Source of the DNA: Chara braunii
Lineage: Eukaryota; Plantae; Charophyceae
Length of the DNA: 64,000 bases
Reading direction: 5' to 3'
NCBI GenBank assembly: GCA_003427395.1
Contig: BFEA01000010.1
Coordinates: forward strand, 2,621,202 to 2,685,201
Positions 16,169-31,049 of this stretch are shown in pieces. The first letter of the stretch is position 1. The number at the start of each line of letters is the position of its first letter. Under the pieces are notes generated by a model, which was not told where the DNA came from, did no database searches, and saw only the letters and a list, made by a program, of their open reading frames with translations. A program made the translations under genes and the position numbers.

Positions 16169-18451
16169 CTAGTCTATCATGCTAAGGTTCAATTGCCTAT
16201 ACAACTGAACCCTGAATCCATCCTTAGCCTTCTCAACAAAGTTCCCTTCCCTGTCAATGAGATTCTTGTTCTCATCCAACTTTACAAAACCATTTTCCTT
16301 ATCAAACTTAAATCCTGGACACTCTTCCCTCAGATGCATCCCTTTCATGCAATACCAACACAACTTTTTGCCCTCACTTCTTGACTTTTTGGCAGAATGA
16401 CCTGGAATCGCTGCCTCCTTCTCTCCACCTACTTCCAACATCTCAGAACAAGGTCTCTTCTTACTATCTCCTGATTCGCCTTCATTAAAAGACTTTGTAA
16501 CAATGTCAGATGTCAGTATCTGAACCAACTTGTTAGCAGAAGCTGGAATGACAGTAGGTTGATCGTCGTTCTCTCCTCTTTATCCCAATACTTCTCTGCT
16601 TACTCCCTCTGGCCTTGTTCTGGTGCATGAAGTGTTCCTGTAATACTCCTGATCTCAAACCCAAGTTCGTCGTTCCATTCAACTATTTTTGTAGGCATCT
16701 CTGCTCCTCCTTCTTGACTAACCTTCCTGAGAGCCTCCATCTCCTTTTCCTGCTTATTGACCTTCCCTTCCAGCTTGCCAACTTCCTTGTCCAACTTTTC
16801 TCGTTCAACCCTCTCTTTTTCCACTTCATTGTTCTTACTATCCAGGGCAATGTTCAACGCCTCCACTTGCTTCTTAAGCTCTTGCTGTTCTTCCCTTACC
16901 TTGCTCATTTCAACCCTCATGCTTTCCACTTCTTTTTCCATCTTTTCCACCTGTGCATCCCTGCTTTCTTCCCTTTTTCTCAATCCCTGGATCTCCTTCA
17001 GGATTTCAGGGATGTGACTTGCTACTCCCTGATTGAGTAATTCCTCCTTCTCTTTTACCATTTCTTGGAGTTCTTTAATCGAAGCCTCCATCTTTCCATC
17101 CTCGTCATTCCCTCTCTGACTCCTTCCTGCTCCCTCCAATTTCTCAGCTACCTCGACTCCTCCTTCAAGGAGCCACTCACAGTCATCCCGAAGCAGCTCA
17201 TGCAGCCGGATCAGCTTATCCAGGTCTGACCGTAGCTTAGAGCCCCTGANNGATTCAATTAACAAGATCCTCNNAATCTTCTCACTCCAANGGGCATCNG
17301 CAGNCAACTCATCTTCCTTCATTGATGCAACCATTTTGTCCCTCCATTCCTTATTTTCTTCCTCTCTCTTTTCTCTCTCTTCCTTGGTCATCCTCCTTGA
17401 TCCTGGTTCCCTGAGAGGATTCTCAGCGGTCGCCATTCCAGTCTCCTTTTCTGTTTGATTCCTTTCTTCTTCCTCTTCTTCATTCTCCTTCACGCCCTCT
17501 TTCCCCATTTCTATCCTCCACTTCCTTCATCCATTCTTTCCCACTCATCGTATCCGATTCCTTCTCTCCTTCTTTTTTCCTCTCCTTCTTCTCTTTTGTG
17601 CCATCTTTTTCTCTTGCTAAATCCTCCACTTCCTTCTTCCCTTCTTCTTCTCTCATCATGTCCTGTTCCCTCTCTTCCTCTTCTTCTTCCTTGCTTTGCT
17701 TCTTCTCCTTGCCTCTTCTCTTCTCTTGCATTCCTGCGGTCCTGCTTGCTGATCCACCTCCCTTCTGAATGGTTGTCCTTTTCCATACAAGCACCTGCCT
17801 GAGGGGCACATCATCTTCGTCAATTTCTTGTCAACCTTTCTTTTCCAGCTTGTCTCCTCTCCTTCCGATCCACAACCCCTGCTCCTGAAGTAACTGTTTT
17901 TTCTTCTGTCTTTGTATGGCCAGAGTGTAGGTTCTTCTGAATTTGACAAGAAACCCTCCCCAAGTATCTGACTCCTCTTTGATCTTCCTCATACTCTCAT
18001 ATTCCATGGGGTCCACTCTTGCCATTACTTGTTCCAGCTTCTCTTCTTCCTTCCACCCCTTCCTTTCTGCATACAGAGTCAGACTGTCCTCGAAATCCTC
18101 CACATTTGTTCCATAAAAGATTATATCATCCTTGATCCCGTCTCTCCTCAGGTCCCCATACTCAACCCACATTTCTGTCTTGAATGTCATCCATCCCAGG
18201 CAGTCGGTGGTAATTTCTTCAATCTTTAATTGACACTCCCCTACACCATTTACTTTGGACAACATGGTTGGGGTATCCCATTCCCACCCGAACGCGTGAT
18301 CCTCGAACTCCCTTAGGAACAACCTCAAATTGTCCCCCTTCTTGTAGATCGGCATTCCATCTGCGTCCCTGGTTACCCGCCGTGATCCCCGTCGCCGTTC
18401 CTTGCCAGAGGCTGGCCTGGAAGGCCCCGCCACCCCTCCCTTCCGTGTCAT
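16169..18451 (-). pseudogene. E2 ORF-C: post-integrase gag-like protein (two capsid-N-like repeats, E/K-rich coiled coil, CCHC knuckle), frameshifted
   Basis: ORFs 17831-18484, 17480-17809, 16600-17508 and 16169-16528. The segment FYGTNVEDFED..EEKLEQ..WGGFLVKFRRTY resembles the E2 gag segment FQGERVSHWL..EK..WIEFKKGMQRKY. Knuckle CWYCMKGMHLREEC. Confidence 0.7.
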
Positions 18452-18606
18452 TGCCGCTCCTTTTACAAGATTAAGCCTGCACACAGAAAAAAGACGAGGA
18501 AAGTGGCAGGTGCAACAGGGTGTCAGCAGTCGGGTAACAATATCAGGTTCGCAAATGGTGCAATCACAAAAGTTTTTAAGGAGGATTGAATTGACTTATC
18601 TTTAGG

Positions 18607-28825: not shown

Positions 28826-28845
28826 GATCCCCGCCAACGGCGCAC
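28826..28845 (-). promoter_or_regulatory. E2 primer-binding site, tRNA-Asp
   Basis: Plus strand GATCCCCGcCAACGGCGC matches the plant tRNA-Asp(GTC) 3' end GATCCCCGGCAACGGCGCCA and lies next to the LTR end. Confidence 0.85.
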
Positions 28846-31049
28846 CCTGTCGCGCGCGGCGGTCCCGCACCCTGCTGGGTGTGCTGAACCTCACAGTCGT
28901 GTCACGTAGGATGTATTCTTGAAGAACAACAGGTCACCACTCCGACCGTGCGCGCGTGCTATACCTCTCACGACGCCCTGCGACAGGTCGGGACGTCGCG
29001 AGACACAACTTACCTCTACCCGAGGGGCTGTCACCACCCTCAGGTAGGCGTATCCCTGTTGAGCTACCGGCCCACATGCAAAGGCTTTTACATGCCTTTG
29101 TAGAGGTAGGTCGGCCGATGGCGTTTGCTCGATCGTTGTAGCATAAAACAGGGTACGAGCGGTAAGACGCCTAAAACTGACCCGTTAGATATTCAGGTCG
29201 AACTTTTAAAAGGCTGTCTATTTTCGCTACTGCGTAATGCATTATCTTCTTGACAAATATCAATCAAATTGTCTTTCTACCAAAGAGCGTCCTATCTTTC
29301 TTAACAAGTTAGGACTTAACTGAACATCATAATACTATAGAGGTTAAGTTGAATATATATGGAAGTATTACTGCCGAGAACCCTTCCTACTTTCACAAGT
29401 GTTGTGCGTCCGAGACTCTTCAACAGACCAGGTCTAGTTCAATCCAAAGTTACGCACAAAACAGACCTTCAAAGAATAATGCAAAGACAGTTCACATGCC
29501 ATGCACTAACGGAGTTAACCATTGACCTTGTCTCTCACTTCCCAAACCATGTATGACAACCTTGTCTTTCCTGAAACGTAAGCCCAGCCCCGTCACATTT
29601 TTACAAAGGACCCTTGAGAGTGACCAGGACCATTTAGGCAATGACCACAGGTGACAGTTTTACTGACCACAGGGTTTGACTTTAGAGGTGGGTATCAAGT
29701 CAAAGGGAGAAAGTTGAATCGGTAACAACCCACCTGTTATCGAGAGATAACAGAAATTTGGGTCCTTTCTATAGAACCTCTTTTGAGATAAACAAGGACC
29801 TGCACACACACAGGTCAACAAAGATTCAACACCCCCACTCAATTCCCACATATTGATATCTAAGGGTCGAGTTCTTAGACATGGGTAGTGAGCTCTGGGA
29901 TCAACGTCCCAGGTCTAATTCCTAGTCTTACTCTCACAACCCTACCCTAAGCCGTCTGTCACTTTCTCCTTTCTCTAAAGGAGTCTCATGCCTGTCTCTT
30001 AAGTCGTCTTTAAGGAAACTCATGTTTACCCTACTCTCAGTCCTTTCATTCTCTCTCTTGGAGATAAGGGCACCGTTTGGCGCTCTTGTAGACGAGATGT
30101 AACTCATTCATTGTTGTGGCATACCATCTGAAAGCCATAGATGGTTATGGACTATGCGGCGGTTCTCAAGCTTCTTTTTCCCGCGATCCTGTCTTATTTC
30201 CTTATTTCTTTTCCAGATGTGAGAAGACCTTGCTCCCACAGGAGCATTGTTCTTTCCTTTCTCTTTAATTTGTCCTAACATACTCAAGTAGTAGATCGAT
30301 TCAGACATGAATCTTCCGCTACTTGGCCAATACCAAACAATTCGTTAGTTGAACAGACAGGTGAGTAAGTCGCATATGAGTATTGATCTCCCTTTAGTTT
30401 CACTTAATGTATACACAAGATCAACTCAGAGTAACAGGATAGCTCACACATGAGCATCCTTCCTACAACAAATAGTTGAGGCTCCTATAGGAGCACCCTA
30501 CTACTTGTTTTAGGTACCATCCTGAAAGATCCTGACGTCATCCCCTTCCCAGAGGTTATTAACGGTCTAAGTGAATAATAGGCGACCCGCACAAGAGCCC
30601 CCTACTATCACGTGACAAGGTCTACTTCACAAGAGCATTAGGATAATCCTAACAAGGGTATCCTGCTGCCCTTCAGAAGCCGACCGTCCTGAGACCGGGT
30701 TAGTTTGGACAAAAGACGAGTGTTTAGAGTATTCCTACAAGAGTACCCTCTTAGCGAGTTAGTATAGAATCAAGTAGGTAGTAGACAAACCCCGACAGAG
30801 GCCCCTCTACTACCTTCCTTGGTTAATGAGTAGTCCAGCCGTTAAACAAGTAATATGACGACTCCTACAGAAGCCTCCCTATTACCAGTTTGGTGGTAGG
30901 ACTATCAGAGGGTAAGTAAGCTAGGAGAGGAAGAGTAGAAACGTGATCTCCTACTGTTTGCAGATTGTTAGTCATCCTTGGACTTAGGCACGTGAATAGG
31001 ACGACCCTCCCTGGAGCCTTCCTTTATTATTTTCTAAGAGTCAGACCTC

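Follow-up and report, generated by a model that had tools for sequence, protein, structure and literature searches.

In the sections of PMC7197481 and PMC7264820 that treat them, the env-like mRNA of the plant retrotransposons Athila and Bagy-2 is described as spliced, and some extra open reading frames (ORFs) of plant retrotransposons are described as having their own promoters. For Diaspora, donors in the long terminal repeat (LTR) and acceptors around the gag start have been predicted (PMC1142308, in its account of that element). Ogre, of the Tat clade, is portrayed as a large element with an extra ORF before gag, whose spacer between gag-protease and reverse transcriptase (RT) is handled by splicing (PMC6317226, PMC1142308, in their passages on Ogre). 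[quoted passage not shown] In Cer1, an LTR retrotransposon of C. elegans, acceptors precede the initiator ATG of CERV, an accessory protein that is encoded by a spliced mRNA and exports the unspliced RNA (PMC10309623, in the portion on CERV). We have analyzed E2, a minus-strand element within a 64,000-nt stretch of Chara braunii DNA (the window; all coordinates are positions in the whole stretch), which has a consensus splice donor in its LTR and candidate acceptors ahead of six ORFs. The acceptor pattern is real for four of these sites (B2, B3, gag and ORF-C), and unproven for ORF-A and B1.

E2 is a decayed Ty3/gypsy LTR retrotransposon with six separately started ORFs, in a stretch that is a nest of several transposons. 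Along the minus strand the order is LTR end, PBS, ORF-A, B1, B2, B3, gag-protease, RT-RNase H-integrase-SH3 and ORF-C. Pfam matches on this strand confirm the domain order gag, protease, RT, RNase H, integrase that is expected of Ty3/gypsy, and the best PDB matches to the RT include Ty3 Gag-Pol. The PBS (28827-28845, minus strand) begins 2 nt after the LTR's CA end and is of tRNA-Asp type, matching at 16 of 19 positions a PBS listed in Table 1 of PMC2844528, the part of that source used here. The gag-protease ORF, identified by motif check, Pfam and acceptor score, occupies 21998-25275 (minus strand) together with its acceptor AG at 25275-4; it starts at ATG 25253 and is broken. RT, RNase H, integrase and SH3 follow at 18607-22001 (minus strand, by Pfam). 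Stops or frame breaks are present in B1, B2, B3, gag, pol and ORF-C. All named homologs of the E2 proteins are Chara braunii gene models, and no related loci were found in the viral contig or metagenome contig collections searched. Within the window there is no 3′ twin of the PBS-adjacent leader of E2; the 5.9-kb repeat pair that flanks the E2 region lacks the leader block and has no target-site duplication.

E2 resembles the Athila clade (Athila4, Bagy-2, Diaspora and FIDEL; plant non-chromovirus Ty3/gypsy elements), as far as the sources cited portray it, in its tRNA-Asp PBS, its long LTR and a sense ORF after pol with an acceptor. It departs from the Athila clade in having four ORFs before gag, three of them forming paralogs within a Chara-only family, and in placing gag-pro and RT in different frames; instead of an env-like 3′ ORF it has a gag-like one, which includes a CCHC knuckle. 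No env-like ORF was seen in E2. Pfam found no chromodomain after the integrase, only an SH3-like match, and the PBS is of the tRNA-Asp and not the tRNA-Met type. Ogre, like E2 a large element with an addition before gag, has one 5′ ORF and one local intron, with none upstream of gag reported as of 2005 in the relevant passages of PMC1142308, whereas E2 has no spacer between protease and RT; the scanned pieces of E2 pol, part of a broken copy, gave no Pfam match to an archaeal RNase H. The position of the donor recalls the foamy viruses; these are enveloped vertebrate retroviruses with a spliced pol mRNA, whereas in E2 a frameshift is predicted for pol and the extra genes precede gag, and the likeness is one of working only. 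Cer1 has a single accessory protein, demonstrated experimentally, where E2 has up to five predicted ones. Neither this Chara family nor any plant retrotransposon in which successive ORFs have acceptors of their own is described in the literature searched, which covered few subscription papers.

The first-pass annotation of this DNA had claimed that every E2 ORF has its own splice acceptor shortly before its start, along with a donor in the LTR. All seven motifs, six AGs and the donor, lie exactly where it had placed them. The acceptor AGs (minus strand) are at 28630-1 for ORF-A, 28013-4 for B1, 27446-7 for B2, 26377-8 for B3, 25274-5 for gag and 18477-8 for ORF-C, with spacings of 15, 18, 20, 21, 20 and 25 nt, respectively, to the start. 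None of the six intervals contains an AUG, the proposed start being the first AUG position after each acceptor. Ahead of each of the six AGs pyrimidine content climbs over the final 20 nt, and zones free of AG extend for 116 nt ahead of the ORF-C acceptor and for 39, 35 and 25 nt ahead of others. Branch-point motifs are present at some of the sites only, with none for B1.

The acceptors were scored by ranking all 1339 AGs of the interval 28840-15600 with a plant-like weight matrix of approximate numbers, not trained on Chara. ORF-C ranked 2, B3 3, B2 12, gag 20, A 37 and B1 96; the corresponding p values for each start against all positions were 0.004, 0.006, 0.022, 0.037, 0.068 and 0.16. Combining them by the Fisher method gave p = 1.2e-5 for six starts, 1.6e-4 for four independent starts, and 3e-3 when compared with spacer DNA only. 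With wider windows the combined p lay between 7e-4 and 4e-3, and the four true-ATG starts alone also gave ≤0.004. Taken singly against spacer DNA, only B3 and ORF-C were below 0.05. In E3, a second multi-ORF element in the window whose ORFs mostly abut, none of seven candidate starts reached p < 0.05. Since the combined p holds under all null models and E3 shows no such signal, the pattern can be accepted for B2, B3, gag and ORF-C. The claim of an acceptor for every ORF is thus upheld for these four, each at p < 0.05, and is not supported for A and B1, whose values cannot be told from chance. One 5′ donor followed by several acceptors before accessory ORFs is therefore present in the sequence for four of the six starts. 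Two further sites had escaped the first-pass annotation. An AG that precedes the RT start by 25 nt ranks 50 with a score like that of A, leaving pol without a strong acceptor; and the top acceptor of the whole element (rank 1 of 1339) lies 3′ of ORF-C, at 15900-15901 (minus strand).

The donor, GAG/GTAAGT at 29008-29016 (minus strand) with its GT at 29013-29012, is situated upstream of the PBS and ranks 1 of 1048 GTs. The identical nonamer is found in the related LTR1 at 8351-8359 (plus strand), where it is the best of 489 GTs in 451-8540. It had been claimed that the donor is conserved in LTR1, and so it is, though as part of a larger block. A leader block of ~250 nt at the LTR's 3′ end (28937-29184, minus strand) is ~73% identical to LTR1 8184-8431 (plus strand), and the donor begins the longest exact run (13 nt) common to the two; with this one, the block has 8 exact runs of ≥8 nt. 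When the two sequences are folded to a consensus, the donor pairs with an arm that lies upstream. Because the surrounding block is conserved as a whole and the fold engages the donor, its conservation is suggestive rather than specific. Folded as single sequences the block gives z = −3.2 in E2 and −0.8 in LTR1, the two folds disagreeing, and no Rfam family covers it. At 29008-29069, a contig that is a diverged relative of the leader block is present in the RNA runs X7 and X4, reaching high depth in the latter, and an abundant RNA may contain this block.

Other copies of the E2 family were compared as computational protein gene models only. Model P0007, from another scaffold, is 82% identical to B2, and has Met where the B2 of E2 has ACG. 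Its order is B2-gag-RNase H-ORF-C, and its ORF-C exon starts at 18478, that is at acceptor C, with an identical 25-nt lead. P0007 and P0011 align with their N-termini to 26355, where B3 starts, and P0002 begins at the Met of ORF-C. As predicted homologs, these models back the starts of B2, B3 and ORF-C, and the position of acceptor C. In a distant family (P0009, P0011 and P0013; 25-31% to B2) a gag-like ORF comes after a B-like one. P0011 and P0013 have a predicted junction a few codons before a Met, hinting that the acceptor-before-start pattern may be found in this family too.

Our preferred explanation, to which we give even chances, is that in the active E2 a short leader from the LTR was joined by splicing to acceptors lying ~20 nt ahead of B2, B3, gag and ORF-C at least. 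Every ORF would thus stand first on an mRNA of its own. The donor is upstream of the PBS, so that RNA spliced from it should lose the PBS; the spliced RNAs would serve translation only, and the genomic role would fall to unspliced RNA. For RT-integrase, the gag-pro mRNA would be translated with a −1 frameshift, predicted to lead into the RT frame at a U-UUU-UUA heptamer (22028-22034, minus strand) that is in the gag-pro register and has a short hairpin 6 nt behind it; we take the heptamer to belong to the class of frameshift motifs familiar from the retrovirus literature. In this series the acceptors of A and B1 would be weak or decayed representatives. The gag start lies 3760 nt and 77 AUGs beyond the donor, and the E2 spacers contain up to 9 AUGs. 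Scanning or reinitiation past many upstream AUGs is unfavourable in eukaryotic translation, and on the full-length RNA is therefore implausible for gag. The proposal that one leader is spliced to all six acceptors gains from the four sites that beat chance, from the implausibility of scanning to gag, from the homologous gene models and from the apparent use of an acceptor in this LTR family (below); precedents are the cases of Athila, Bagy-2, the foamy viruses and Cer1 described above. It has against it the weak A and B1 sites, two contigs that cross the donor unspliced and the donor-like sites near ORF stops, and no junction was seen in RNA of low depth (below). If leader splicing is confirmed, E2 would be a case in which multi-acceptor splicing of the complex-retrovirus type arose independently, here in a streptophyte alga, and in which the RNA that is translated is cleanly separated from the RNA that is packaged. 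E2 supplies six exact candidate junctions that are open to experiment.

A number of observations weigh against leader splicing. The acceptors of A and B1 cannot be distinguished from chance, scoring relied on a heuristic matrix, and the AGs had already been seen when the starts were picked. AGs within coding sequence at 20002, 24792 and 20460 (ranks 5-7) outscore those of B2, gag, A and B1. Models P0001 and P0007 have junctions at 20003 and 24797, beside the AGs of ranks 5 and 6 inside coding sequence; the scoring is thereby supported, but it follows that a predicted junction is no proof of ORF-specific use. Upstream of the donor, a stretch of 453 nt contains six AUGs, so that the splicing model requires a start site near it. 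The conservation of the donor may reflect a structured leader.

RNA reads do not confirm leader splicing, at a depth too low for this to count as a negative. None of the 17 listed runs was indexed as containing the stretch, which is evidence neither way. Eight of the 17 listed runs were aligned at 80% likeness and low depth, nine being left out; X1-X3 were read to 6-13% only, a joint call needed three reads, and 15901 lay outside the aligned region. Parts of E2 without contig coverage carry no evidential weight. In the eight runs, where internal depth was mostly <3 and the copies were diverged, there were no leader-to-acceptor junctions. Six joints were listed (2 + 4), none of them donor-to-acceptor and none with intron-type ends; one, 18047-18418, was present in four contig runs. 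Two contigs cross the donor unspliced, X10#7 (28975-29466) and X7#28 (28925-29071), and X2 has ~24 reads on the intron side of the donor compared with 25 on the exon side, equally on both strands, so that these may be DNA. The LTR contigs may derive from solo LTRs without acceptors behind them. A different site does appear to be used in RNA. At an LTR-internal acceptor (29467-29468, minus strand; rank 2 of 154 LTR AGs) foreign sequence is joined at AG 29468-7, among the loose ends listed, in 4 reads each of X1 and X3 and in a contig of X10; for X1 and X3 the bin concerned has reads in one direction only, taken to be sense. The two foreign sequences differ from each other, and neither lies within the window. 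This suggests that exons, from the host or elsewhere, are joined to this LTR family by splicing, and so that its signals can be used; the joint is a different event from the claimed splicing of leader to ORF.

Competing evidence concerns donors near the stop codons. Donor-like hexamers occur ≤20 nt from four of the six ORF stops, with 0.78 expected; the GTs are at 27716 (B1), 26628 (B2), 18618 (integrase) and 16161 (ORF-C), within 16156-27716 on the minus strand. The acceptors may therefore pair with local donors instead of one leader donor. This was a post hoc check, with p = 0.005-0.2 depending on model and window and 0.05-0.2 with the full donor matrix, and there is no donor near the stop of ORF-A. 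One way to read these sites is that the spacers are local introns, or the ORFs cassette exons, a stop-near donor being joined to the next acceptor or to 15901. With its spacers shortened, the RNA would be polycistronic but compact, much as E3 is tightly packed, and its ORFs would be reached by reinitiation. The candidate introns of 142-307 nt are close to the 172-274 nt spacers given for Bianca and Ogre in PMC6317226, whose section on Ogre describes that spacer as a proven intron, and the top-ranked acceptor is 3′ of all the ORFs. However, no such joints were found in the eight aligned RNA runs, and local introns are compatible with leader splicing rather than exclusive of it; we regard this explanation as unlikely, though the most probable of the rivals. 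Fusion of the ORFs into one polyprotein by local splicing was tried and rejected, as the B1 and B2 donors are after or near the stop and a join from integrase to ORF-C meets a stop at once. The two sets of signals could also be combined as an array of cassette exons, run by a charophyte Ty3/gypsy lineage, in which the LTR donor upstream of the PBS is joined to any of five or six ORF acceptors, that of gag among them, and the stop-codon donors to a common 3′ exon at 15900. Each protein except pol would then be made from its own short mRNA, and the unspliced genome would never be translated. In this reading the element would also carry a triplicated orphan gene and a second gag. We think it rather unlikely. 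Such a design would be more elaborate splicing than in any plant retrotransposon found in the literature searched.

Two explanations dispense with splicing. The signals might be mostly chance: in a strand rich in AG, four of the AGs would be ordinary and two would happen to follow strong pyrimidine tracts, while the donor would be kept as part of a structured LTR end. AGs recur at intervals of ~10 nt, A and B1 resemble the RT start, only B3 and ORF-C stand out from spacer DNA, and junction reads are lacking. Yet the combined p is ≤0.004 under every null and window tried, E3 is devoid of such signals, and another copy appears to keep acceptor C, which makes chance improbable as the main account. 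Still less probable, in our judgment, is that pyrimidine patch plus YAG forms an internal promoter or translation-entry element, from which the ORFs are expressed without splicing. ORF-C-like contigs in five runs, with the integrase region almost uncovered, provide a weak hint in this direction, and an extra gene of maize Grande is described as having its own promoter in the pertinent part of PMC7264820. This explanation leaves the perfect donor unaccounted for, and the signals end in YAG behind the long AG-free zones noted above. Both features are typical of splice acceptors.

The products of the extra ORFs were characterized individually. ORF-A (28117-28631, minus strand; start TTG at 28614; motif check and acceptor score) is an RG-rich orphan with its weak acceptor AG at 28631-0, and a search of near-length sequences found no homologs. 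Comparison shows B1, B2 and B3 to be three paralogs, bearing out the suggestion of shared ancestry. B1 (27703-28014, minus strand; acceptor score and paralog comparison) is short and broken, with its weak acceptor AG at 28014-3. B2 (26641-27447, minus strand) was defined by alignment to P0007 and has an ACG at 27425, an early frame break and its acceptor AG at 27447-6. B3 (25577-26378, minus strand), with ATG 26355, one frame break and a strong acceptor AG at 26378-7, is delimited by its rank of 3 and the P0007 and P0011 N-termini. The B proteins form a Chara-only family, with 8 convincing among 9 matches in 1.84 billion representatives. There was no Pfam match and only a weak Atlas lead. The AlphaFold model of B (pLDDT 57) gave no Foldseek match at E ≤ 0.001, and its best VIA Z of 7.3 was to generic helical repeats; no fold was recognised. 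For the question of a Rev-like exporter of unspliced RNA, these results give an RG-rich ORF-A lacking homologs and a B family lacking a recognised fold.

ORF-C (16169-18478, minus strand; ATG 18451; strong acceptor AG at 18478-7) is a charged protein with a capsid-like N-terminus, a coiled coil and a C-terminal CCHC knuckle. Comparison with gag N-termini by hhalign gave a probability of 69% (E = 4e-5), the single-sequence comparison only 1.4%. The C-terminal CCHC region resembles that of gag (E = 0.001), and at the level of a lead its Atlas neighbours are gag and capsid clusters (0.87-0.93). From these similarities ORF-C looks like a second gag. It had no sequence match in PDB, and its single-sequence fold had a pLDDT of 40. 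It is not an env-like protein with transmembrane domains as in Athila, as judged with no dedicated transmembrane predictor.

The second multi-ORF element, E3 (48991-52387, plus strand), has a tRNA-Asp-type PBS at 48991 and about six ORFs before gag, several abutting stop to start (e.g., at 50759 and 51053). This suggests a second route, reinitiation, to multi-ORF expression in the same genome, the neighbouring element seeming to solve the same problem differently. E3 is interrupted at 52388 by a chromovirus-type Ty3/gypsy element (52388-58829, plus strand) with 517-bp LTRs that are 93% identical, and matches to RT, integrase and chromodomain.

The LTR1 region seems to collect fragments of structural RNA. 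It contains a U6 small nuclear RNA copy at 3125-3240 (plus strand; Rfam RF00026, 76 bits), a weak match to eukaryotic large-subunit rRNA at 1441-1766 (plus strand; E = 0.005, below the gathering score) and tandem 64-nt repeats at 1987-2809 (plus strand) that are tRNA-like by eye, in which ARAGORN finds no tRNA. The flanking 5.9-kb TG...CA repeats (8541-14430 and 35680-41626) are 96% identical overall and 100% identical over ~2 kb; this latter identity, with ambiguous bases at matching positions, is possibly assembly fill-in. The end of the repeat shares a hairpin motif with the LTR1 start at 451, and the repeat also carries GAGGTAAGT (11913, 39094). One 450-nt repeat is present both at 1-456 and at 35229-35684, followed at nearly the same base by an LTR terminus, in opposite LTR orientations, possibly indicating a target preference. 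The motif ATCCTRCGTGACA occurs ~50 nt before the LTR end or PBS in three otherwise dissimilar LTRs, at 8478-8491 (plus strand), 28894-28905 (minus strand) and 48922-48935 (plus strand). Upstream of the E2 leader there are arrays of a 71-bp repeat at 31037-32001 and 33141-33350, and a purine tract followed by TGTCAC at 33896 (minus strand) may be an LTR start.

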